A stretch of 64,000 nt of DNA from Squalus acanthias (GCA_030390025.1 CM059432.1:56360001-56424000), one strand, 5' to 3'. Shown: positions 2,317 through 50,671, numbered from the stretch's first letter. Translations and numbers: made by a program. Notes: generated by a model from the sequence alone, not told the origin.

Positions 2317-5300
2317 ATAGAGTCATAGTCATACAGCACAGAAAGAGGCCCTTCGGCCCATCGTGTTTGCGCCGGCCATCAAGCTCTATCTATTCTAATC
2401 CCATTTTCCAGCACTTGGTCCGTAGCCTTGTATGCTATGGCGTTTCAAGTGCTCATCTAAATGCTTCTTGAATGTTGTGAGGGTTCCTGCCTCTACTACC
2501 CTTTCAGGCAGTGAGTTCCAGATTCCAACCACCCTCTGGGTGAAAATGTTTTTCCTCAAATCCCCTCTAAACCTCCTGCCCCTTACCTTGAAACTATGCC
2601 CCCTGCTTATTGACCCCTCTACTAAGGGGAAAAGTTCCTTTCTATCTACCCTATCTATGCCCCTCATAATTTTGTACACCTCAATCAGGTCCCCCCTCAG
2701 CCTTCTCTGCTCTAAGGAAAACAACCCCAGCCTGTCCAGTCTCTCTTCATAGCTGAAACGCTCCTGTCCAGTCTCTCTTCATAGCTGAAATGCTCCAGCC
2801 CAGGTAACATCCTGGTGAATCTCCTCTGCACCCTCTCCAATGCAATCACATCCTTCCTATAGTGTGGCGACCAGAACTGCACACAGTATTCCAGCTGTGG
2901 CCTAACTAGCGTTTTGTACAGCTCCATCATAACCGCCCTGCTCTTGCGTTCATTAGCCGAGGCATAGTATATAAGTATCCCATATGCCTTCTTAACCACC
3001 TTATCTACCTGTCCTGCTGCCTTCAGGGATCTTTGTACATGCACACCAAGGTCCCTCCGATCCTCTGTCCTTCCTAGGGTCCTACCATTCACTGTATATT
3101 CCCTTGCCTTGTTAGTCCTCCCAAAATGCATCACCTCACACTTTTCAGGGTTAAATTCCATTTGCCACTGTTCTGCCCATCTGACCAACCCATCTATATC
3201 ACCCTGTAGCCTGAGGGTTCCCTCCTCGCTATTTACCATTCCACCAATTTTCGTGTCATCTGCAAACTTACTGATCATATCTCCTACATTCATATCTAAA
3301 TCATTAATGTACACTACAAACAGCAAGGGACCCAGCACCAATCCCTGCAGTACACCACTGGACACAGGCTTCCAGTCACAAAAACAACCTTCGACCATCA
3401 CCCTCTGCCTCCTGCCACTAAGCCAATTTTGGATCCAATGTGCCAAATTGCCCTGGATCCCATGGGCTCTTACCTTCTTGACCAGTCTCCCATGCGGGAC
3501 TTTGTCAAAAGCCTTACTGAAGTCCATGTAGACTACATCAACTGCACTACCCTCATCCACACACCTGGTCATCCCCTCGAAAAATTCAATCAAATTGGTT
3601 AGACATGATCTCCCCCTGACAAAGCCATACTGACTATCCTTGATTAATCCTTGCCTCTCCAAGTGGAGACTAATTCTGTCCCTCAGGGAAATTATTGGAA
3701 AAAATTCTATCACTGATGTTAGGCTCACTGGCCTGTAATTCCCTGATTTATCCCTACTACCCTTCTTGAATAATGGTACTACGTTAGCTGTCCTCCAGTC
3801 CTCTGGCACCTCCCCTGTGGCCAGAGAGGTTCTGAAAATTTGTGTCAGAGCCCCTGCAATCTCCTCCCTTGCCTCACACAGCAGCCTGGGATACATCCTG
3901 TCAGGGCCTGGGGATTTATCCACTTTTAAGCCCGCTAAAACTGCTAGTACCTCCTCCTTCTCAATGCTAATTTGTTCAAGTATATCACAATCTCCCTGCC
4001 TGATTTCTATGCCTACATCGTCCTTCTCCATAGTGAACACAGATGCAAAATATTCATTTAAAACCTCACCTGCATCTTCTGGCTCTACACACACATTGCC
4101 ACTTTGGTCCCTAATGGGCCCTACTCTTTCCCTGGTTATCCGCTTGCCCTTAATATACTTATAAAACACCTTGGGATTTTCCTTTATTTTGCCCGCCAGT
4201 GTTTTTTCATGCCCCCTCTTCGCTCTCCTAATTTATTTTTTAAGTACCCTCCTGCACTTTCTGTACTCCTTTAGGGCTTCCTCTTTACTCTTTACAATCT
4301 ATATTAACGATTTGGAGGAAGGGACCAAGTGTAACATATCAAAATTTGCAGATGATACAAAGATGGGAGGGAAAGTAGTGAGTGAGGAGGACATAAAAAA
4401 CCTGCAAGGGGACATAGACAAGCTAAGTAAGTGGGCAGAGATTTGGCAGATGGAATACAACACTGGAAAGTGTGAGGTGATGCACTTTGGCAGGAAAAAT
4501 CCTAGAGCAATTTATTATCTTAATGGCAAGAAACTGGAGAGTACTGAAGCGCAAAGGGATCTGGGGGTCCTGGTGCACGAAACTCAAAAGGTTAGTATGC
4601 AGGTGCAGCAAGTGATTAAGAAGGCAAATGGAATGTTGGCTTTCATTGCTAGGGGGATAGAATATAAAAATAGGGAGGTATTGCTTCAGTTGTACAAGGT
4701 ATTGGTGAGACCGCACCTGGAATACTGCATACAGTTTTGGTGTCCTTACTTAAGGAAAGACATCCTTGCTCTCGAGGCAGTGCAAAAAAGGTTCACTCGG
4801 TTAATCCCGGGGATGAGGGGGTGGTCATATGAGGAGAGGTTGGGTAGATTGGGACTCTACTCATTGGAGTTCAGAAGAATGAGAGGCGATCTTATTGAAA
4901 CATATAAGATTGTGAAGGGGTTGGATCGGGTGGATGCGGGGAGGATGTTCCCGATGACGGGTGAGACGAGAACTAGGGGACATAGTCTTAGAATAAGGGG
5001 CTGCTCTTTCAAAACTGAGATGAGGAGGAACTACTTCACTCAGAGGGTGGTAGGTCCATGGAATATGCTGCCACAAAAAGCTGTAGAAGCTACATCATTA
5101 AATAAATTTAAAACAGAAATAGACAGTTTCCTAGAAGTAAAGGGCATTAAGGGTTACGGGGAGCGGGCAGGAATTTGGACATGAGTCTAGGTTCGGATCG
5201 GTCATGGCCCTGTGGGTAGTGGAGCGGGCCCAGGGACCGTGTAGCCTGATTCTGCTCCTATTTCGTGTGTGCAATTCTGTTAGATGCAGGAGATGGTTCT

Positions 5301-7332
5301 GTGATAGTAGATTGGCGGTTAGGATCAGATCAGCCATGATCTTGTTGAATGGCGGAGCAGGCTCGAGGGGCCGATTGGCCTACTCCTGCTCCTATTTCTT
5401 ATGTTCTTATGTTCTTCCACTGTTTTTAGTCCTTTGTATCTGCCAAAAGCCTCCCTTTTTTTCCTAATACATTCTTGTATATCTCTTGACATCCAGGGTT
5501 CCCTGGACTTGTTGGTCCCACCCTTGACCTTTACGGGAACATGTTGGCGCTGTACTCTCTCTCTTTCCTTTCTGAAAGACTCCCACTGCTCTGATGTGGA
5601 TTTTCCTACAAGGAGCTGATCCCAGTCCACTTTGGCCAGATCCTGCCTTATCATATTAAAATCGGCCTTCCCCCAATTTAGAACCTTTATTTCCGGTCCA
5701 TCTTTGTCTTTTTCCAAACTACCTTAAATCTCACCGAATTATGGTCACTGTCACCAAAATGCTCTCCTACTGATACTTCTACCACTTTCCCGGCTACATT
5801 CCCTAGAATTAGGTCCACTACCGCCCCCTCTCTTGTAGGACTTTCTACATGCTGGCTCAAAAAGCTCTCCTGGATGCACTTTAAGAATTCCACACCCTCT
5901 AAGCCTTTCACACTCTGACTATTCCAGTTAATACTGGGGAAGTTGAAATCCCCTACTATTATTACCCTATTCTACATTTCTTTGAGATTTGCCTACGTAT
6001 CTGTTCCCCTATCTCCCCCTGACTATTTGGGGGCCTATAGTACACTCCCAGCAAAGTGCTTGCCCCCTTTTTGTTTTTAAGTTCTACCCATATGGCCTCA
6101 TTAGAGGAACCTGCTAAGATATCATCCCTCTTTACTGCAGTAATTGACTCCTTGATTAATATTGCAACACCCCCTCCTCTTTTACACCCCTTCTGTCTCG
6201 CCTGAAGATTCTATACCCCGGAATATTGAGCTGCCAGTCCTGCCCCTCCCTCAACCATGTCTCTGTGATAGCAACAATATCACACTCCCATGTGTTCATC
6301 AACACCTTCAATTCATCTGCCTTACTCGCAAGACTCCTTGCATTAAAATAAATGCCATCCAGCCTTGCCATGCTCCCTTGTGCCGTTACATATTTGCTTT
6401 GCCTTCCAGGCTGACTTGTTTTTTCCTCTATATTTGGCTGTGCATCACCCCCTACTATAACTCCACTCCGTATCCCATCCCCCTGCCAAGTTAGTTTAAA
6501 CCCCCCCCCCCCAACAACACTAGCAAACCTCCCTGCTTGTGCCGTTACATATTTGCTTTGCCTTCCAGGCTGACTTGTTTTTTCCTCTATATTTGGCTGT
6601 GCATCACCCCCTACTATAACTCCACTCCGTATCCCATCCCCCTGCCAAGTTAGTTTAAACCCCCCCCCCCCCCCCCCCCCCCCAACAACACTAGCAAACC
6701 TCCCTGCAAGGATGTTGGTCCCGTTCCGGTTCAGGTGCAACCCGTCCGACTTGTACAGGTTCCACCTTCCCCAGAAACAGACCCAGTGATCCAGGAAACT
6801 AAAGCCCTCCCTCCTGCACCAACTCTTTAGCCACGCATTCATCTGCTGTATTCTCCTGTTCCTATACTCACTAGCACGTGGCACCGGGAGTAATCCAGAG
6901 ATTACAACCTTTGAGGTACTGCTTTTTAATCTGCTACCTAGCTCCCTAAATTCTTGTTGCAGGACCTCATCCCTCTTTCTACCTATGTTGTTGGTACCAA
7001 TGTGAACCACAACCTCTGGCTGTTCACCCTTCAGAATGCCCTGCAGCCGTTCAGTGACATCCTTGACCCTGGCACCAGGGAGGCAACATACCATCCTGGA
7101 GTCACGTCTGTGGCCGCAGAAACGCCTGTCTGCACCCCTCACTATTGAGTCTCCTACCACGATTGCCCTTCCACTTTTACTCCTCTCCCCTTGTGCAGCT
7201 GAGCCACCCACAGTGCCTTGAACTTGGCTCTGGCTGCACTCCCCAGAGGAACCGTCACTTTCACCGTTTTCCAACACACAAAAACGGTTGTTGAGTGAGA
7301 TGCACTCTGGGGCTTTCCTGACTTCCTGCCTT
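2317..7332 (-). mobile_element. CR1 LINE, 5'-truncated within ORF1 (esterase, APE and RT), interrupted by a nested CR1
   Basis: ORF 6156-7277 has GDS...GTN...DGLH SGNH/esterase motifs and the APE start YFNARS. ORF 2712-4169 is RT (YRPVSLTS, DFSKAFDKV, KFADD). Short repeat tail at 2317-2332. Confidence 0.95.
4282..5413 (+). mobile_element. 5'-truncated CR1 nested antisense in the CR1 at 2317-7332
   Basis: RT C-terminal ORF (KFADDTK...LEYCIQFW), (TTCTTATG)n tail, probable CTTCC TSD at 4277-4281 and 5414-5418. The host sequence resumes collinearly. Confidence 0.93.
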
Positions 7333-7339
7333 CTTAAGA

Positions 7340-7610
7340 TTTTTATTTAAGCTCAGCATTATCTCTTGGCTTTTCTACTCCATACCTCTTGAGATAAAAC
7401 CTAAAATTCTATTAGCCTGTTGTTCACAACCTTATCAACCTGAAATGATGCCTTTAATGTTCTGTGAACCTGTTCCCGCAAGTCCTTCTGCTCTTCCACA
7501 GCACTGAGCCTACTTTAATTCAGAGTATAATTAATGCTATTTTTTTTTTAGCCAAAATGCATCACCTCACATTTAATGACATTGAATTCCATCTGACATT
7601 ATGTGCCATT
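7340..7610 (-). mobile_element. Old CR1 RT C-terminal fragment
   Basis: Degenerate matches to the WQMEFN..KCEVMHFG and ILGFI..EY regions of younger CR1 copies in this window. Confidence 0.6.
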
Positions 7611-15809: not shown

Positions 15810-18800
15810 ATAGAATACATAGAATACATAGAACAGTACAGCACAGTACAGGCCCTTCGGCCCTCGATGTTGTGCCGAGCATTGTCCGAGACCAAGATCA
15901 AGCTATCACACTCCCTATCACTCTGGTGTGCTCCATGTGCTTATCCAATAACCGCTTGAAAGTTCCTAAAGTGTCCGACTCCACTATCACAGCAGGCAGT
16001 CCATTCCACACCCCAACCACTCTCTGAGTAAAGAATCTACCTCGGACATCCCTTCTATATCTCCCCCCATGCACCTTATAGTTATGCCCCCTTGTAACAG
16101 CTGCCTCTACCCGAGGAAATAGTCTCTGAACATCCACTCTATCTATCCCCCTCATCATCTTATAAACCTCTATTAAGTCGCCTCTCATCCTCCTCCGCTC
16201 TAAAGAGAAAAGTCCCAACTCCCTCAATCTTTCCTCATAAGACCTCCTCCCCCAAACCAGGCAGCATCCTGGTAAATCTCCTTTGCACTCTTTCCAATGC
16301 TTCCACGTCCTTCCTATAGTGAGGTGACCAGAACGGCACACAATATTCCAAATGTGGTCTCACCAAGGTCCTGTACAGTTGCAGCATAACCTCACGGTTC
16401 TTAAACTCAAACCCTCTGTTAATAAACGCCAACACACCATAGGCCTTCTTTACTGCTCTATCCACTTGAGTGGCAACCTTCAGAGATCTGTGGATATGAA
16501 CCCCCAGATCCCTCTGCTCCTCCACGTTCCTCAGAACCCTGCCGTTGACCCTGTAATCCTTATTCAAATTTGCCCTACCAAAATGAATCACCTCGCACTT
16601 ATCAGGGTTAAATTCCATCTGCCATTTTTCGGCCCAGCTCTGCATCCTATCAATGTCTCTTTGCAGCCTACAACTGCCCTCCACCTCATCCACTACTCCA
16701 CCAATCTTGGTGTCATCAGCAAATTTACTGATCCACCCTTCAGTCCCCTCCTCCAAGTCATTGATAAAAATCACAAACAGTAGAGGACCCAGCACCGACC
16801 CCTGTGGCACCCCGCTGGTAACTGGTCTCCAGTCCGAAAATGTTCCATCCACCACCACCCTCTGCCTTCTATGAGATAGCCAGTTACTTATCCAATCGGC
16901 CAAATTTCCCTCTATCCCACAACTCCTTACTTTCTTCATGAGACGACCATGGGGAACTTTATCAAACGCCTTACTAAAATCCATGTATACGACATCAACT
17001 GCTCTACCTTCATCTACACACTTAGTTACCTCCTCAAAGAATTCAATCAAATTTGTTAGGCAAGACTTACCCTTCACGAATCCGTGTTGACTATCCCTGA
17101 TTAAGTTGCCCCTTTCCAAATGGTCATAAATCCTATCCCTCAGGACCTTTTCCATTATCTTACCAACCACCGAAGTAAGACTAACCGGCCTATAATTACC
17201 AGGGTCATTCCTATTTCCTGTCTTGAAGAGAGGAACAACATTCGCCACTCTCCAGTCCTCTGGCACCATCCCCGTGGACAGTGAGGACCCAAAGATCAAA
17301 GCCAGAGGCTCTGCAATCTCCTCCCTTGCCTCCCAAAGAATCCTAGGATATATCCCATCTGGCCCAGGGGACTTATCGACCCTCAGGTTCTTCAAAATTG
17401 CTAAAACATCTTCCCTCAGAACATCTACCGCCTCCAGCCTATCCACCTTTATCACACTCTCATCCTCAAGAACATGGCCCCTCTCCTCGGTGAACACTGA
17501 CGAAAAGTATTCATTCATCACCTCTCCTATCTCTTCTGACTCCATGCACAAGTTCCCACTACTGTCCTTGACCGGCCCTACCCTCACCCTGGTCATTCTT
17601 TTATTTCTCACATAAGAGTAAAAAGCCTTGGGGTTTTTCTTGATCCGACCCGCCAAGGGCTTCTCATGCCCCCTCCTAGCTCTCCTAAGCTCTTTTTTTT
17701 TAGCTCATTCCTTGCTACCTTGTACCCCTCAATCGACCCAACTGAACCTTGTTTTCTCATCCTTACATACGCTTCCTTTTTCCTCTTGACTAGACATTCA
17801 ACATCTTTTGTGAACCATGGTTCTCTCACTCGGCCATTTCCTCCCTGCCTGACAGGGACATACCTATCAAGGACACGCAGTAATTGCTCCATGAAAAAGC
17901 TCCACTTTTCGTTTGTGCCTTTCCCTGATAGTTTCTGTTCCCATCTTATACTCCCTAATTCTTGCCTAATCGCATCATAATTACCCCTCCCCCAATTATA
18001 AACCCTGCCCTGCCGTATGGCCCTATCCCTCTCCATTGCAATAGTGAAAGTTACCGAATTGTGGTCACTATTTCCAAAGTGCTCTCCCACATACAAATCA
18101 AACACTTGGCCCGGTTCATTACCCAGTACCAAATCCAACGTGGCCCCACCTCTTGTCGGCCTATCCACATATTGTGTCAGGAAACCCTCCTGCACACACT
18201 GTGCAAAAACTATCCCATCCGAACTGTTTGACCTATAAAGGTTCCAATCAATATTTGGAAAGTTGAAGTCACCCATGACAACTACTCTGTGACCTCCACA
18301 CCTATTCATAATCTGCTTTGCAATTTCTTCCTCCACATCTTTATTACTATTTGGGGGCCTGTAGAAAACTCCTAACAACGTGACCGCTCCTTTCCTATTT
18401 CTAACTTCAGCCCATATTACCTCAGACGGCAGATCCCCCTCGAACTGCCTTTCTGCCGCTGTTAAACTATCCTTGATTAACAATGCTACTCCTCCACCTT
18501 TCTTACCAACTTCCCTACTCTTACTGAAACATCTATACCCCGGAACTTCCAACAACCATTCCTGTCCCTGTTCTAACCATGTCTCCGTAATGGCCACCAC
18601 ATCGTAGTCCCAAGTACCAATCCACGCTCCAAGTTCTCCTACCTTATTCCGGATGCTCCTTGCATTGAAGTAGACACACTTCAAGCCATCTTCCTGTCTG
18701 CCGGTACATTCCTGCGACCTTGATACCCTCCTCAGTACCTCCCTACACTCACCACTGGCTCGTGGACTACAGCCCTTTTTCCCATCCCCCTGACAAATTA

Positions 18801-20076
18801 GTTTAAACCCCCCCCCGAAGAGCCGTAGCAAATTTCCCTCCCAGGATATTGGTGCCCCTCTGGTTCAGGTGCAAACCGTCCTGTTTGTACAGGTCCCACC
18901 TTCCCCAGAATGTGCTCCAATTATCCACATAACTGAAACCCTCCCCCCTACACCATCCCTGCAGCCACGTGTTTATCTGCACTCTCTCCCTGTTCCTCAA
19001 CTCGCTAGCACGTGGCACCGGCAACAAACCAGAAATTACAACATGGTTTGTACTGGCTCTCGGCTTCCAACCTAGCTCTCTAAATTCCTGTTTTAAATCC
19101 CCGTCCCTTCTCCAACCTATGTCGTTGGTACCGATGTGTACCACGACTTGTGATTGTTCCCCTTCCCCTTTGAGGATTCTGAAAACACGGTCCGAGACGT
19201 CACGGACCCTGGCACCCGGGAGGCAACATACCATCCGTGAGTCTCTTTTTGCTGCCACAGAACCTCCTATCTGTCCCTCTGACTATTGAGTCCCCAATAA
19301 CTATTGCTCTCCTGCTCTCCTCCCTTCCCTTCTGAGCCACAGGGACGGACCCAGCGCCGGAGATCCGGTCACCGTGGCTTACCACTGGTAAGTCGTCCCC
19401 CTCAACAGTATTCAAAGCGGTATACCTGTTACTGAGGGGAACGACCACAGAGGATCCCTGCACTGACTGCTTCCTCCTAGCCCCTCTCACCGTCACCCAT
19501 CTATCTTCATGCTTTGGAGTAATTACATCCCTGAAGCTTCTATCTATGACCTCCTCTGCCTCCCGAATGATCTGAAGTTCATCCAGCTCCAGCTCCAGAA
19601 CACGGTTTTCGAGGAGCTGGAGATGGGTGCACTTCCCACAGGTGTAATCAGCAGGGACACCTACGGCGTCCCTCACCTCAAACATTCTGCAGGAGGAACA
19701 TTTCACTGCCTCCCCTGCCATCCCCTCCAGCTAACTTGCAGATTAAACTAGAACAAAAAAGAGCTTACCTGATAGTCACTCACCTCCTTTAGGTTAGAGG
19801 AGGAGGAAGGGTGGGGGACACTACAAGTGTAGTGTCTCGGGTTTAGGAACCGCCCAACTTATATACAGGTAAAAATTAATCTCCTACCCAGCAACCACTG
19901 CGTCCCGCACTTTAAAAGCCTCTGTGGGCCTACCTGGTCGCCGCTGCCTCTTGACTCCTCCGCCTCGCCGCAGCCGCTCCACCCAGGTCCGCCGCCTCTG
20001 TGGGCCTACCTGGTCGCCGCCGCCTCTTGACTCCTCCGCCTCGCCGCAGCCGCTCCACCCAGGTCCGCCGCCTCTG
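15810..20076 (-). mobile_element. Full-length or near full-length CR1 LINE (5'UTR, ORF1 Zn-finger/coiled-coil/esterase, ORF2 APE-RT, tail)
   Basis: ORFs 19200-19721 (CSSC..CGKC), 18803-19258 (esterase), 17608-18831 (APE), 16235-17656 (RT) and 15898-16341. (ATAGAATAC)n tail at 15810 and a GC-rich 5' end. Confidence 0.96.
19918..20076. repeat. 76-bp tandem repeat (2 copies plus partial) in the CR1 5'UTR
   Basis: GCCTCTGTGGGCCTACCTGG unit starts at 19918 and 19994, with a partial third start at 20070. Confidence 0.9.
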
Positions 20077-42216: not shown

Positions 42217-45200
42217 CAGAGGAGGTCGCGAACCTGGACGTGACCAGAGCGGGAGCAGAGCGAGAGAGGCAGCAACTCAACAGAGGCAGAATTCGAAGTG
42301 AAGTCAGGTAGAAAAAGTGACGGCGGCACAAGGGAAGGAGCTGATTGGTGAGTAGCTGGTGAGTTTAAAAAAAAAAGATTTTAAGTTTATTTTTGCTAAG
42401 TTAGTTCTTAGTCTATTAAAAAGAGGCATGGCAGGGCAGCTCAGTCCCATGGAGTGCACATCCTGTGCCATGTGGGAAGCCCTGGACGCTTCGCATAGCC
42501 TGGACAACCACATGTGCAGGAAGTGTCACCAGCTACGGCAGCTCAAGACCTGTGTTTCGGAGCTTGAGCAGCAGCTGGAGTCACTGCGGTGCATCCACGA
42601 GGCTGAGAACTTCATGGATAGCACCTTTCTAGAGGTGGCCACCCTCAGCTTAAGAGTGTGCAGGCAGAGAGGGAATGGGTGACCGCCAGACAAAAGAGGA
42701 GGACAGGCAGGTAGTGCAGGAGTTCCCGGAGTGCATCTTGCTCTCCAACCAGTATTCTGTTCTGAGTACTGGTAGGGGTGGTGGTTCCTCTGGGGAGTGC
42801 AGCCAGAGCCAAGTCCACGGCACCACGGGTGGCTCAACTGCACGGGGGGGGGGGGGAGGGGCGGAGGAAGAGTGGAAGCGCAATAGTGGTAGGGGATTCA
42901 ATAGTTAGGGGAGCAGACAGGTGTTTCTGCAGCCGCAGACGTGACTCCAGGATGGTATGTTGCCTCCCTGGTGCCAGGGTCAAGGATGTCACCGAGCAGC
43001 TGCAGGGCATTCTGGGGGGAGGAGTGTGAACAGCCAGAGGTTGTGGTCCATATCGGTACCAATGACATAGGTAGAAAGAGGGATGAGGTCCTGCAGGCAG
43101 AATTTAGGGAGCTAGGAAAGAGATTTAAAATCAGCACCTCAAAGGTAGTAATCTCCGGATTACTCCCGGTGCCACGTGCTAGTGAGTACAGAAATAGGAG
43201 GATAGAGCAGATGAATGCATGGCTGGAGAGATGGTGCAGGTGGGAGGGCTTTAGATTCCTGAGGCATTGGGACCGTTTCTGGGGGAGGTGGGACCTGTAC
43301 AAACCGGACGGGTTGCACCTCAGCAGAGCTGGGACCAATATCCTTGCGGGGGGTGGGGGGGTTTGCTGGTGCTGTTGGGAAGGGTTTAAACTAGCTTGGC
43401 AGGGGGATGGGAACCTGAGAATAGATTCAGAAGGGAGAGAAGCAAAGCTGAAATTGGAAAGCAAAAAAGTAGAAAGTGATTTTGGAAGACGGAGGAAACA
43501 AGGGCTAAAAAATAGAAAACAAGGGAGTTTGGCAGTGCTAAGTGGTATATACGTCAATGCAAGAAGTATAGGAAATAAGGTAGATGAGCTGAGGGCACAG
43601 ATAGACACTTGGGAGTATGATGTAGCTATTATAGAGACATGGCTGAAAGAAGGGCAGGTATGGCAACATTCCTGGTTACAGGGTTTTCAGACGGGATAGA
43701 GAGGGGGATAAAAAAGGAGGGGGGGCCGCAGTATTGATTTAAAGAAACAATTACAGCAATGAGGAGGAATGATATGTTTGAAGGATCATCAAATGAGGCC
43801 ATATGCGTTGAATTGAAGAACAAAAATGGGTGATCGCCCTGCTGGGAGTGTACTATAGATCCCCAAAACAGTCAGAGGGAGATAGAGCAAATATGTAAGC
43901 ACATTTCTGAGAAGTGCAAAAATTATAGGGCAGTAATAGCAGGGGATTTCAACTACCCTAATATTAACTGGGATAAAATTAGTGTGAATGGTATAGAGGT
44001 GTGGAATTCCTAAAATGCATTCAGGAGAACGTTTTTAGCCAGTATGTAACAAGCCCAACAAGGGAGGGGGCGGTTCTGGACTTAGTTTTAGGGAATGAAG
44101 CTGGGCAGGTGGAAGGGGCATCAGTGGGAGAGCATTTTGGTGCTAGTGATCATAATTCAGTTAGATTTAGGGTAGTTCTGGAAAAGGACAAAGATAGACC
44201 AGGAATAAAAGTTCTCAACTGGGGAAAAGCCAATTTTGCTAAGCTGAGATGGGATTTAGCCAAAGTGGACTGGAAAGCGGCTACTTGAAGGTAAATCAGT
44301 GTCCGAGCAGTGGGAGGCATTCAAGGATGAGATCCTGAAATGTTTCAGAGCAAGGATGTTCCTTTTAAAGAAAAAGGGTGGGATTAACAAATCTGGAGCC
44401 CCCTGGATGTCCAGGGACATGCAGGGTAGGATAAAGAAAAAATGGGAGGCTTATGACCGATACCGAGGGCTCAATACTGCAGAAACTCTAGAGGAGTATA
44501 GAAAGTGCAGGGGTGCAATTAAAAAGGAAATTAGGAAAGCAAAGTGAGAGCATGAAAACATTTTGGCAAGTAAAATCAAGGAAAACCCAAAGATGTTTTA
44601 TAAGTACATTAAGAGCAAGAGGATAACAAAAGAAAAAGTAGGGCCCATTAGAGACCATAAAGGTAATCTGTGTATGGAGGCAGAAGACATGTGTATGGTT
44701 CTTAATGAATACTTTGCGTCTGTTTTCACAAAAGAGAGGGGCGATGCAGACATTGTAATCAGGGAGGAGAAGTGTGAAATATTAGATGACATAAACATAG
44801 TGAGAGAGGAAGTATTAAGGGGCTTAGCAGCTTTGAAAGTGGATAAATCCCCAGGCCCGGATGAAATGTATCCCAGGCTGTTAAGCGAAGCAAAAGAGGA
44901 AATAGCAGAGGCTCTGACCATCATTTTCCAATCCTCTCTGGCTACAGGTAAGGTGCTGGAGGACTGTTAACGTTGTACCTTGTTTAAAAAGGGAGAAAGG
45001 GGTAGACTGAGTAATTACTGGCATCAGCCTAACCTCGATGGTGGGAAAATTATTGGAAACAATTCTGAGGAACAGGATAAATCTTCATTTAGAAAGACAC
45101 CGATTAATCAAGGACAGTCAGCATGGATTTGTTAATGGAAGGTTGTGTCTGACTAACTTAATTGAATTTTTTGAGGAGGTAACGAGGGTCAGTGAGGGTC

Positions 45201-48200
45201 AGCAGCTGCAGGACATTCTGAAGGGGGAGGGTGAACAGCCAGAGATTGTGGTCCATATCGGTACCAACAACATAGGTAGAAAGAGGGACGAGGTCCTGCA
45301 AGCAGAATATAGGGAGCTAGGAAATAAATTAAAAAGCAGGACCTCAAAGGTAGTAATCTCGGGATTACTCCCAGCGCCAAGTGCTAGCGAGAGCAGAAAT
45401 AGGAGAATAGACCAGATGAATGCGTGGCTGGAGAGATGGTGTAGGAGGGAGGGAATTAAGTTCCTGAGGCATTGCGACCGATTCTAGGGAAGGTGGGACC
45501 TGTACAAGCTGGACGGATTACACCTCGGCAGAACCGGGACCAATATCCTCGCAGGGGGGTTTGTTAGTGCTGTTGGGAAGGATTTAAACTAGTTTGTCAG
45601 GGGGCTGGGAACCTATGTGTGGGCCCAGAACAGAGAGAAACAAAGCTGGAAGCGCAAGTTAGAAAAGTAGTCAGCAAAACTAGTAGGGAACAGAAACAAA
45701 GTCCAACAGTAAAGAGGGTCAAAGTGCAGAAAAATATTAAACAAGCAAAGTTGAAGGCACTTTATCTAAATGCACATAGCGTTCGCAACAAGGTGGATGA
45801 ATTAATGGCACTAATAGAAGTAAATGGGTATGATGTAATTGCCATTACAGAGACATGGTTGCAGGGTAACCAAAGCTGGGAACTGAATGTTCCAGGGTAC
45901 TCAACATTTAGGAAGGACAGACAAAAAGGAAAAGGAGGTGGCGTAGCGCTGTTAATAAGGGATGAGATCGGTACGGTAGAGATAAAAGATCTTGGCGTGG
46001 CAGATCGTGATGTAGAACTGGAATCAGTTTGGGTGGAGCTAAGAAACCGCAAAGAGCGGAAAACATTGGAGGGAGTTGTGTATAGGCCACCAAACAGTAG
46101 TGGTAATGTAGGGCACAGTATCAATCAAGAAATTAAAAGTACATGTAACAAGGGCAATACGGTAATCATCGACTTTAATCTACATATTGACTGGGCAAAT
46201 CAAATTACCACTAATGGTGTGGAGGACGAATTCTTGGAATGCATGCGAGATGGTTTCCTGGATCAGTATGTGGAGGAACCAACCATTCTGGATCTGGTAC
46301 TGTGTAATGAGAAAGGGCTAATCAATAATATTGTGGTAAAGAGACCTTTAGGGACAAGTGACCATAATATGATTGAATTTTATATTAAGTTTGAGAGTGA
46401 TGTAGTCCAATCTGAAACTAAGGTCTTCAATCTAAACAGAGGAAGCTACAAGGGTATGAGGGACAAGTTGGCCATGGTAGGTTGGGAGACTACACTAAAA
46501 GGTATGAAGGTGGTCATACAATGGCTAACATTCAAGGAAATAATGCATAATTTGCAACAAACATATATTCCTCTAGGGCATAAAAACCCAAAAGGAAAGG
46601 TGATCCAACCATGGCTAACAAAAGAAATTAAAGCGAGTATTAAGTCGAAGGAGGAAGCTTATAAAGTTGCCAGACAAAGCGGTCAGCCTGAGGATTGGGA
46701 TCTTTTTAGAAATCAGCAAAAGGGGACCAAGAAATTGATAAAGAAAGGGAAAATGGAATATGAGCACAAACTAGCGAAAAATATAAAAACGGATTGTAAA
46801 AGCTTCTATAGGTATGTGGAAAGGAAAAGATTGGCGAAGGTAAATGTAGGTCCTTTACAGTCAGAGACGGGAGAATTTATAATGGGGAAATGAGGAAATG
46901 GCAGAGAAATTAAATACTTTGTTTCTGTCTTCACGGAGAAAGACACAAAAAACCTCCCTGAAATACGAGACAACCAAGGGTGTGGCGAGAATGAGGAACT
47001 TAAAGAAATTATTATTAGTTAAAAAAACAGTACTAGCAAAATTAATGGGACTAAAAGTCGATAAATCTCAAGGACCGGATGACCTACATCCTAGGGTTTT
47101 GAAAGAGGTGGCCATTGGGATAATGGACGCATTGGTTGTCATTTTCCAAAATTCTATAGATTCTGGAATGGTTCCTGCAGATTGGAGGATAGCAAATGTA
47201 ACCCTGCTATTTAAGAAAGGAGGGAGAGAGAAAACGGGGAACTACAGACCTGTTAGCCTCACATCAGTAGTTAGGAAAATGCTGGAATCTGTTATAAAGG
47301 ATGCAATAACTGGGCACTTAGAAACTAATAGTAAGATTGGGCAGAGTCAACATGGATTTATGGAAGAGAAATCCTGTTTAACAAACCTATTGGAGTTCTT
47401 TGAGGATGTAACTAGTGAAGTAGACAAAGGGGAACCGGTAGATGTGGTGTATTTGGATTTTCAGAAGGCCTTCGATAAGGTCCCACACAAGAGGTTGGTG
47501 AACAAAATTAGGGCACATGGAATTGGGGGTAATATACTAGCATGGATTGAGAATTCGTTGACAGACAGAAAACAAAGAGTAGGGATAAATGGGTCTTTTT
47601 CAGGATGGCAGGCTGTGACTAGTGGGGTACTGCAAGGATCGGTGCTTGGGCCCCAGCTATTTATAATCTATATCAATGATTTGGATGAGGGGACTAAATG
47701 TAACATTTCCAAATTTGCTGATGACACAAAGCTAGGTGGCAGTGTCAGTTGCGAAGAGGATGTGAAGAGGCTTCAAGGGGATCTCGACAGGCTCAGTGAG
47801 TGGGCGAGAACATGGCAGATGGAATATAATGTGGATAAATGTGAAGTTATCCACTTTGGTAGAAAAAACAGGAAGGCAGAGTATTTCCTAAATGGTGAAA
47901 GATTGGGGAATGCAGATGCTCAAAGGGACCTGGGTGTCCTTGTACATGAGTCACTGAAAGTGACTGTGCAGGTGCAGCAATCCATTAGGAAGGCAAATGG
48001 TATGCTGGCCTTCATTACAAGAGGATTTGGGTACAAGAGTAAAGAAGTCTTACTCCAATTATATCGGGCCTTGGTGAGACCACACCTGGAGTACTGTGTA
48101 CAATTTTGGTCTCCTTACCTAAGGAAGGATATACTTGCCATAGAGGGAGTGCAACGAAGGTTCACAAGTTTGATTCCTGGGATGGGCGGGACTGTCGTAT

Positions 48201-49330
48201 GAGAAGAGATTGAGTAAACTAGGCCTGTATTCTCTTGAATTCAGAAGAATGAGAGGGGATCTCATTGAAGCATACAAAATTATTACAGGGCTTGATAGGG
48301 TGGATGCAGGGAGAATGTTTCCCTTAGCTGGGGAGTCTAGAACCAGGGGCCATAGCCTCAGGATAAAGGGTAGGCCATTCAGGACTGAGATGAGAAGAAA
48401 TTTCTTCACACACAGGGTGGTGAATCTTTGGAATTTTCTACCCCAGAGGGCTGTGGAGGCTCAGTCATTGGGTATATTCAAAACAGAAGTCGATAAATTT
48501 CTGACGAGTAAGGGCATCAAGGGATATGGCGATAAGGCCGGTGAATGGAATTGAGGCAGAAGATCAGCCATGATCTCATTGAATGGAGGAGCAGGCTTGA
48601 AGGGCCGAATGGCCTACTCCTGCTCCTATTTCTTATGTTCTTATGGTAGTGCATTTGATGTAGTGTATATGGATTTTAGCAAGGCTTTTGATAAGGTCCC
48701 ACATGGCTGACTGGTCACGAAAGTAAAAGAATACAAGAGCAGGGAGGTTATGCTAGAACTTTATCAAACACTAGTTAGGCCACAGCTAGAGTACTGCGTG
48801 CAGTTCTGGTCACCACATTACAGGAAAGATGTGATTGCAATAGAGAGGGTACAGAGGAGGTTTACAAGGATGTTGCCTGGACTGGAGAATTTTAGCTATG
48901 AGGAAAGATTGGATAGGCTGGGTTTGTTTTCTTTGTAACAGAGGAGGCTGAGGGGAGAACTTATTGAGGTGTATAAAATTATGAGGGGCCTAGCTGGAGT
49001 GGATAGGAAGGACCTATTTCCCTTATCAGAGGGGTCAACAACCAGGGGGCATAGATTTAAAGTAATTGGTCGGAGCTTTAGAGGAGATTTGAGGGAAAAT
49101 TTCTTCATTCAGAGGGTGGTGGGGGTCTGGAACTCACTGCCTGAAAGGGTGGTAGAGGCAGAAACCCTCACCACATTTAAAAAGTGCTTGGATGTACACT
49201 TGAAGTGCCTTAACCTACAGGGCTACGGACCAAGAGCTGGAAAGTGGGATTAGGGTGGATAGGTCTTTGTCAGCCGGCGCGGGCACGATGGGCCGAAATG
49301 GCCTCCTTCCATGCTGTAAATTTCTATGAT
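42217..49330 (+). mobile_element. CR1 with 5'UTR and ORF1, interrupted by a nested CR1 and carrying an internal RT deletion
   Basis: ORF1 CTSC..CRKC (42428 onward), esterase, APE and RT fragments to 45199. Resumes at 48645 (GSAFDVVYMDFSKAFDKV). Jumps from KVK to EYKS at about 48728. TTTCTATGA tail. Confidence 0.93.
45200..48644 (+). mobile_element. Nested CR1 (ORF1 end, APE, RT, tail)
   Basis: ORFs 45619-46893 (APE), 46898-48202 (RT) and 48210-48554. TTCTTATG tail. Probable GGT TSD at 45197 and 48645. Confidence 0.94.
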
Positions 49331-50671
49331 TTGCAGCACATGTGGAAACCCAGAACGTGCAGGGCCATTCTGAGCACTTAGGACGGCGTACGCTGAGCAT
49401 ACGCAGTCATTGGCCTAGTAAAATCCGGGCCATTATTTCATGATAGCCACAATGCGATGACTATTGTCTTTGAGTACAACTGCAGAGTTTCCAGATGTTT
49501 GTGTAGTATCACCAGACTATGCATATTGTGTTGGCACCCAAATGTATTGATCAGTTTGCTTGTTGTCAACTATTACAATATGTATACAATCCGTAATAAT
49601 TTAGATCGGTGCAGAAAATGTTTTGGACGTTTGGTATTTTCTGTGGTGCTTTACACCTCACACACTGCAACCCCTCTCTTGACCTAGTGTGTGGCTTCCA
49701 GATGTGGCTGCTTTTCCTCGCATCCAGAAGTCCGTTTCTCCTTCCAGTTACCAGCATCTTCATTAGGCTGCAGCCTCTCATTGTAGCTGTTAGTCTGTTG
49801 CGCCAGACTCCGCGCTATGATTTCAGAGGCATGGGTGCAGTGCGCATTTTTCCACCCCTTATTTTATACAAGAAATCAATAGCTGTTCGACAATTAGCTC
49901 CCAGGGCTTTGCAGTCACCAGTATTAGAGAAAAATGAAAGCATTTCATTACTTTTCAAATTGTTTTACATCTCTGGTGCTAAATAGAGGCATTTGATCCC
50001 AATCCTGGTAATCATTTTACTTTTTAGAATTGTGCAGAAGTTTGAAAATGTATGACGTAAGTATAGACTGTTGAAAAACCATGCTGACTCTTAAATCCTT
50101 TTTGGCATAATGTGTATTATTAGGACAGTACCAACCCTGTGGAGGAATATACCCATTTTCCTCTCGTTTGATACTTCTTATTCTTAAGCCACTTCATTCT
50201 CAAACCTGAAATGCAAAATTTTTCGATCAAGTTTTGAGGTCTTTCGAACATAAAGTTAAAACTGCCATTTGTGTGTTGGCATGTAATGAGCTGTTGCACC
50301 TATAGAGGGAGCTGTTATCTAAAATATGCAGGTTAGTCAACTGATTGGGTCTACTTTTAATTGATTTATCGGAGAGATGTGACTGAGGAATAGTTCTAAT
50401 GTGAGCTGACATTTTTGTGTACTTTTCAGTCAGACTAGAAAAAAGTAAAACATTTTTACAGCAGCAAAAGTAGAACTTTTGGTACAATTTTTATGATTAT
50501 ATGCATGATTACAAGACTGTATAAGTGCTGAATAAATCCACTCTGAATGGTTAATACGTTGTGCTCAGCATTGTAAGGAATCATGGCTTCACTAGGGAAA
50601 TTGTTAAACTATTCACTGACCAAGTACAACAGATCTACTGTGACGTGCTACTCATACTTTTGGGATTTATT

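Follow-up and report, generated by a model that had tools for sequence, protein, structure and literature searches.

The window analysed here is a 64,000-nucleotide (nt) stretch of the Squalus acanthias genome (GCA_030390025.1 CM059432.1:56360001-56424000, one strand, positions counted from its first letter), and it carries copies of CR1, a retrotransposon lacking long terminal repeats (a non-LTR element) with two open reading frames, ORF1 and ORF2. An original prediction, made from the sequence of the window, had singled out the ORF1/ORF2 junction of one copy as a candidate programmed -1 ribosomal frameshift site. This flagged copy belongs to a lineage that we call A, is 95.1% identical to another lineage-A copy over 3465 bp, and sits inside an older CR1 that is interrupted at about 45199 and picks up again at 48646. 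Its features are the following:

45201..48645, + strand: CR1 copy of lineage A, 5'-truncated and decayed, inside the reverse transcriptase (RT) region of the older CR1
45200..45592, + strand: ORF1 remnant encoding an SGNH/GDSL esterase (PF13472 on 45200-45484, E 2.9e-9)
45583..45589, + strand: slippery heptamer T_TTA_AAC, in X_XXY_YYZ phase in the ORF1 frame
45590..45592, + strand: ORF1 stop codon, adjoining the heptamer
45600..45609, + strand: G5-N2-G3 tract, a candidate stimulator, beginning 11 nt past the heptamer
45583..46893, + strand: -1 frame, a variable linker of about 60 codons and then the APE endonuclease
46883..48202, + strand: RT part of ORF2 (PF00078, E 4e-31)
48626..48645, + strand: CR1-type 3' end, a short tandem repeat without poly(A)

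Like canonical vertebrate CR1 (Stuart et al. 2026, PMC13343379; Schneider et al. 2013, PMC3905857), the element has an ORF1 that combines a zinc-finger-like CX2C-X14-CX2C motif with an SGNH esterase, an ORF2 in which APE is followed by RT, and a short-repeat 3' end without poly(A). Its probable assignment to CR1 rests on this structure and on like junctions in CR1-labelled rows of the PMC13343379 library. Read in the frame of the esterase, 45578-45592 is AAG GAT TTA AAC TAG, with T at 45583, TTA at 45584-86, AAC at 45587-89 and TAG at 45590-92, and a direct reading of the window therefore bears out the phase of the heptamer and the adjoining stop as first described. The -1 frame is free of stops from 45568 to 46893 and carries the APE domain (PF03372, PF14529), so that the frame scan and Pfam agree with the prediction that it stays open into the endonuclease. 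Its earliest ATG, at 45805, indeed lies downstream of the YLNAHS motif at 45763. The nonsense change noted in ORF1 is also present (TAG, 45485-45487) and is private to this copy; the codon is not a stop in 28 of the 29 other lineage-A copies, and is TGA in L022. In the flagged copy the RT part is in a different frame from APE, whereas intact lineage-B and lineage-D copies have the two in a single continuous frame, and the break is decay after insertion. Because its ORF1 is truncated and contains a stop, and its ORF2 frame is broken, the flagged copy is dead and unable to use its own signal.

The signal is best judged from the family as a whole. A first look found approximately 55,000 candidates for this ORF1 in the 3.7 Gb genome; among homologues with names, the best matches come from sharks and rays. 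Using four lineage queries (A-D), we took the best 30 copies each, of 150, 150, 150 and 125 listed, or 120 copies in all. Queries A-C stopped short of the junction, and their sets of 30 include the window's own copy; the lineage-D query was an entire foreign ORF1, last residues included. The exact heptamer is present in 27/30, 29/30, 26/30 and 30/30 copies of lineages A-D (112/120), the eight misses being point changes or deletions, and it is followed directly by a stop in 111 of the 112 copies that have it. It lies in the ORF1 phase in 23, 26, 20 and 30 copies, respectively (99/112), and the out-of-phase B and C copies mostly have upstream indels or altered G-runs, which fits the earlier remark that changes in upstream poly-G length blur the phase. 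As had also been anticipated, the linker is poorly conserved: beyond the first nine codons its sequence is wholly different between lineages. Wherever the -1 frame runs unbroken to the APE motif in lineages A (19/19) and B (27/27), no ATG precedes the motif (46/46). In young lineage-B copies the APE motif is at codon 47 and the first in-frame Met at codon 166, about 120 codons into the endonuclease; this Met position holds in 6 of 7 copies, the seventh having a frame break.

Full-length frames were checked in 20 longer stretches, and these place ORF2 in the -1 frame. All four lineage-D copies checked at length have an intact ORF1 of 321 codons followed by 999 open codons, from the heptamer through RT to the end of ORF2, and two lineage-B copies have 920 and 968 open codons from the heptamer; full ORF1 in sister copies is 311-321 codons. 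Lineage D (L142-L171, L176-L179) is very young, with many intact ORF1s and an intact ORF2 in 4/4 checked, and is possibly still active. Two of the three long-frame lineage-B copies inspected, L188:583-6531 and L190:1287-4085 (reverse strand), have a G-run shortened by one base that joins the two ORFs in frame, and L188 has a 1983-codon open frame with two RT motifs, apparently due to in-frame nesting in another CR1. Assembled contigs from four runs, presumed to be RNA, gave neither a joint nor an indel across the junction of a lineage-D copy, although such multi-copy-repeat contigs say nothing on absence, strand or expression. With an eel-type ORF1 as query, the Squalus genome yielded no match at E 1e-75.

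Is the heptamer more conserved than a Leu-Asn coding constraint would explain? We compared 19 representatives: 5 from Squalus, and 14 foreign ones selected with a pattern in which TTA, AAY and the stop are fixed and the preceding base is free. The base before TTA is T in 18/19 representatives, compared with 191/770 (25%) at four-fold background sites, even as the residue before Leu varies (A, G, S, C, D, T or F). TTA is used in 19/19 compared with 26/192 background Leu codons (the foreign rows having been selected for TTA), and AAC in 19/19 compared with 29/69 background Asn codons (the foreign rows having been selected for AAY), whereas the third positions of the neighbouring conserved DGLHL codons vary among the same representatives. 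A run of five Gs falls within +6 to +18 in 18/19 representatives and in 204/9076 background windows (2.2%); it usually starts at +11 and is followed after 2-3 nt by three Gs (G5-N2-3-G3), and the G-tract thus recurs downstream as foreseen.

Proteins point the same way. From 315 homologues we kept 203, after dropping 96 without DGxH, 6 with tails too short and 10 with tails too long. The residue before a terminal LN is K, E, Q, M or W, which have no U-ending codon, in just 1/91 proteins, while these residues occur one and two positions earlier in 40/91 and 32/91. Of 29 proteins ending in GN, 23 have Q just before it, and none has a residue there that lacks a G-ending codon; other homologues end in KN, or have FF, FL or GF near the end. 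After clustering, a slippery-compatible terminal tripeptide is found in 27/48 clusters at 60% identity (control rate 3.4%) and 40/76 at 70%, compared with about 3.5% elsewhere in the domain. By these comparisons the heptamer is conserved beyond amino-acid need, in line with the original prediction; of the findings that would have refuted it, neither an ORF2 in another phase nor a bare Leu-Asn constraint was seen. We infer that the Gln-Gly-Asn endings, which would fit G_GGA_AAC, reflect a switch of heptamer type between lineages; PMC5009743 ranks U_UUA_AAC and G_GGA_AAC among the most shift-prone heptamers. The profile that retrieved the GN/FF group also retrieved crustacean-named proteins, from Cherax, Portunus and Procambarus, but no protein with such a name has a GN ending, and viral contigs, prokaryote genomes and plasmids yielded no DNA for the Gln-Gly-Asn lineages. 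An alignment of vertebrate-type ORF1s likewise had no matches in viral contigs. The distant esterase ORF1s P0315, P0188 and P0226, perhaps L2-type, end without a slippery-compatible motif, and their endings suggest that the slippery signal may be limited to the CR1 branch.

The junction is also present well outside this genome. In 51 loci from a metagenome scan the ORF1 end was set by alignment and not by motif, and 21 of them span the junction. TTTAAAC is present in 17 of the 21, three of these with a mutated stop; the other four comprise one GTTAAAC, two point-mutated heptamers and one unrelated sequence. By resemblance to chicken CR1, we take most of these loci to be bird- or reptile-like, with L092, L098 and L100 more divergent than the others. 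The supplement of PMC13343379 was searched by motif as well, over the opening 400 characters of every row, which shows presence and not frequency. Within that portion, the CR1 consensuses contain the same junction: heptamer and stop lie at the apparent ORF1 end in CR1-labelled rows AllMis, CroPor, PogVit, AquCat, LatCha and AmiCal, and likewise CalMil, PriPec, HypSab, ScyCan and SquAca. We presume that these row prefixes stand for crocodilians, a lizard, a frog, the coelacanth, the bowfin, a chimaera, sharks and rays. Three of the motif matches were not junctions (two SquAca 5' ends and one L2 row), and of the three TGA matches one was inspected; synonymous variants of the junction gave nine matches in these row beginnings, and the eight viewed were all L2 or unclassified rows. 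A row labelled Crack, AldAff_Crack-2, has an apparent esterase-type ORF1 end with heptamer and stop and is possibly a mislabelled CR1; no ORF1 has been detected in vertebrate Crack elements (PMC13343379). Judged from all of these sequences, the CR1 heptamer junction is real and deeply conserved, shared by sharks and by relatives of reptile and bird type.

Given the phase of the heptamer, the open -1 frame, the fixed silent bases, the lack of ATG in two lineages and the conserved G-tract, all of which are observed, we think it likely (probability roughly 0.8) that the end of CR1 ORF1 is a programmed -1 frameshift site that yields an ORF1-ORF2 fusion. In such a mechanism most ribosomes would terminate at the adjacent stop and release the ORF1 protein. 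In a minority, tRNA-Leu and tRNA-Asn on UUA AAC would re-pair on UUU AAA in the -1 frame, and the slipped ribosomes would continue through the variable linker (about 45-70 codons among the lineages of this genome) into the endonuclease. The minor product would be an esterase-endonuclease-reverse transcriptase, made in a ratio like that of Gag to Gag-Pol and, from intact lineage-D copies, about 1,300 residues long. Because this fusion would retain the terminal Leu-Asn of ORF1 and go on with -1-frame residues from the Leu at 45589, the DLK or DFK transframe peptides first proposed would not be its main product under tandem slippage.

Several observations weigh against a frameshift, or at least against a uniform one. 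The claim that no ATG precedes APE holds for lineages A and B and fails for lineages C and D and for several bird-type loci: an ATG precedes the APE motif in 12/14 open lineage-C copies, one is found at linker codon 16 in 30/30 lineage-D copies, and in several bird-type loci an in-frame ATG comes 3-5 nt past the stop. The 14 non-shark rows of the silent-site test were chosen by a pattern that itself fixes TTA and the stop, and the lineages are related, such that the counts are not independent trials. At 60% identity 21/48 clusters have no compatible tripeptide end, and at 50% only 7/18 are compatible. The divergent locus L092 has G_TTA_AAC, the G_GGA_AAC reading comes from protein sequence only, and a few published consensuses, as they appear in the row beginnings of the PMC13343379 supplement, have no readily visible G-tract. 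The 19 representatives share no conserved hairpin, their 70-nt downstream folds having z from -1.41 to +1.40. Finally, the support for frameshifting is indirect and sequence-based.

ORF2 might instead be reached by termination and reinitiation, with ribosomes restarting at a nearby AUG or non-AUG codon and the conserved bases serving as a reinitiation signal. This is an established route in other long interspersed nuclear elements (LINEs) with two ORFs, such as SART1 and L1 (PMC2881922, PMC3708506), the ATGs near the stop of several bird-type loci and in the linkers of lineages C and D would suit it, and the stop is conserved as well as the heptamer. But lineages A and B have no such ATG, the bird-type ATG codon is GTG, TCG or TGG in sister loci, and a SART1-type AUG overlapping or adjoining the ORF1 stop is absent in lineages A and B and, where present elsewhere, not conserved. 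Reinitiation would also leave unexplained why the base before TTA is fixed and why LN, GN and FF/FL endings switch together with matching upstream residues, and we consider it improbable. It is somewhat more plausible, if still unlikely, that the two modes are mixed, frameshifting being ancestral and lineages with a linker ATG making part or all of their ORF2 protein by reinitiation, which overlaps with the frameshift we favor. Young lineage D, after all, has its ATG fixed, and several bird-type loci have one near the stop. Yet the ATG-bearing lineages still have a G-tract and the complete heptamer, where decay would be expected of a signal out of use, and a chance ATG is probably to be expected in a purine-rich linker of 45-70 codons.

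Two further explanations seem to us much less probable. The ORFs could be joined at the RNA level, by splicing into the AG before the G-tract or by polymerase slippage in the upstream G-run: an A precedes the G-run at +10 in 12/19 representatives, lineage B and the copy at 6659 have long upstream G-runs, and a G-run one base shorter is what fuses the two lineage-B copies described above. The upstream sequence is purine-rich and lacks a polypyrimidine tract, however, a long G-run upstream is missing from lineages A and D and from the bird-type loci, and the heptamer would go unexplained, all of which makes this very unlikely. Least probable of all is that the heptamer is incidental, with Leu-Asn closing the last helix of the esterase and the codon choice inherited or biased. 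The site does lie at a conserved domain end, N169 is invariant in alignment A1, and the elements are related, but silent positions are fixed at the heptamer while neighbouring ones vary, other lineages end in GN, KN or FF/FL, all slippery-compatible, and the silent-site and protein tests largely refute this idea. It would, moreover, leave ORF2 of lineages A and B without a route to translation with an intact endonuclease.

The stimulator is the least certain part of the proposed frameshift. We looked for a classical 3' hairpin or pseudoknot 5-9 nt downstream by minimum free energy folding and a duplex scan, in which pseudoknots are not modelled explicitly, and found no shared fold; 120-nt downstream folds have z below -2 in 2/19 representatives. 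A local hairpin was therefore rejected, a long-range partner of the G-tract had no common site in 14 copies by duplex energy, and a strong G-quadruplex was likewise rejected, as predictions are only two-tier and in 5/19. [quoted passage not shown] As described in part of PMC5009743, a minority of stimulators begin 11-15 nt downstream and are linear protein-bound motifs, that of PRRSV among them, and our guess, by analogy, is that the spacing of the CR1 tract fits this class. Our next guess would be a weak two-tier G-quadruplex; according to PMC3919603, G-quadruplexes stimulate -1 shifting in synthetic constructs, with an optimum spacing of 6-8 nt. Slow termination at the adjacent stop would help the shift. 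A linker-coding role for the G-tract is also possible, because it encodes Gly-x-Gly in the -1 frame.

The same heptamer had been reported in three other CR1 copies of the window, and this stands. TTTAAACTR occurs 6 times compared with 2.44 expected (6 or more in 3/100 shuffles, weak taken alone), and 5 of the 6 matches sit exactly at CR1 ORF1 ends, the sixth (903-911) being unrelated. Besides the flagged junction these are:

43385..43391, + strand: heptamer and stop where ORF1 of the lineage-C host copy ends
18801..18807, - strand: heptamer and stop of a young lineage-B copy
6494..6659, - strand: heptamer and stop twice (6653-6659 and 6494-6500) in a fourth copy with a local 159-bp duplication

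Since 6653-59 and 6494-6500 are one duplicated site, the window holds four independent junctions. The G-run of the 18801-18807 copy is two bases longer than the modal length, which puts its heptamer out of phase; this copy (15822-20076, - strand) is near full-length and 98.9% identical to another over 4.2 kb. At 6156-7346 (- strand), the tandem-duplicated junction comes with a long poly-G run, and esterase to endonuclease form one open frame of 396 codons. The lineage-C host and its lineage-A insert span 42427-49331, nested CR1 pieces are dense across the window, and 4287-5416 is 98.8% identical to lineage D.

Programmed -1 frameshifting is not new to non-LTR elements: according to a review (PMC5911963), Dictyostelium TRE5-A and TRE3-A use it; these are also APE-type, but belong to another clade, have an unrelated ORF1 and target tRNA genes. 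With viral and LTR signals (coronavirus U_UUA_AAC, gag-pol, PEG10), as presented in PMC5009743, CR1 would share the heptamer class, the phase, and a structural gene upstream of a polymerase in the -1 frame. It differs in that a hairpin or pseudoknot 5-9 nt downstream was not detected, the stop adjoins the heptamer, there is no protease to cut the fusion, and the host element is a target-primed LINE. The closest analogy for the stimulator may be the PRRSV nsp2 shift, in which nsp1beta and PCBP act on the linear CCCANCUCC 11 nt downstream (same source), CR1 likewise having a short unstructured motif at about +11. It is an analogy only: the CR1 motif is G-rich and has no known binding protein, and a -2 shift in CR1 would hit a stop at once. 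SART1 and mammalian L1 are, like CR1, two-ORF LINEs with low ORF2 output that depends on ORF1 translation, but SART1 uses a UAAUG stop-start to make separate proteins, whereas the CR1 ORFs overlap at a heptamer, and an ATG is missing in lineages A and B. A literature search found no frameshifting proposal for CR1, although older subscription papers and Repbase reports, which lay outside it, may mention one. The main texts of PMC13343379 and PMC3905857 do not address ORF2 translation, the word 'frameshift' is absent from these and from the main texts of PMC3708506 and PMC2881922, and 'CR1' does not occur in the 300,000 characters searched of the 449,034 of PMC5009743.

Two observations concern database records. 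CR1 ORF1 proteins P0010 and P0298 come from short contigs filed under bacterial names (Pseudomonas aeruginosa and a Brocadiaceae metagenome-assembled genome), and these records are most likely contaminated with animal DNA. The ray gene models P0028, P0071, P0072, P0089 and P0101 (RPS24, TMEM204, ABHD14A-like and C8orf74-like isoforms) include CR1 ORF1 sequence, by either exonisation or annotation artefact.

How ORF2 is translated in two-ORF LINEs is an open question in the reviews PMC3708506 and PMC3894237, and the model cases L1 and SART1 give separate proteins. A CR1 frameshift would answer it precisely for the dominant retrotransposon of most vertebrates. If it is real, the N-terminus of CR1 ORF2 is mis-annotated, and the esterase and oligomerisation region of ORF1 would be part of the active enzyme, by which RT would be tethered to the ribonucleoprotein as in Gag-Pol. 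Vertebrate genomes would then hold very many frameshift cassettes, possibly with a new kind of stimulator.
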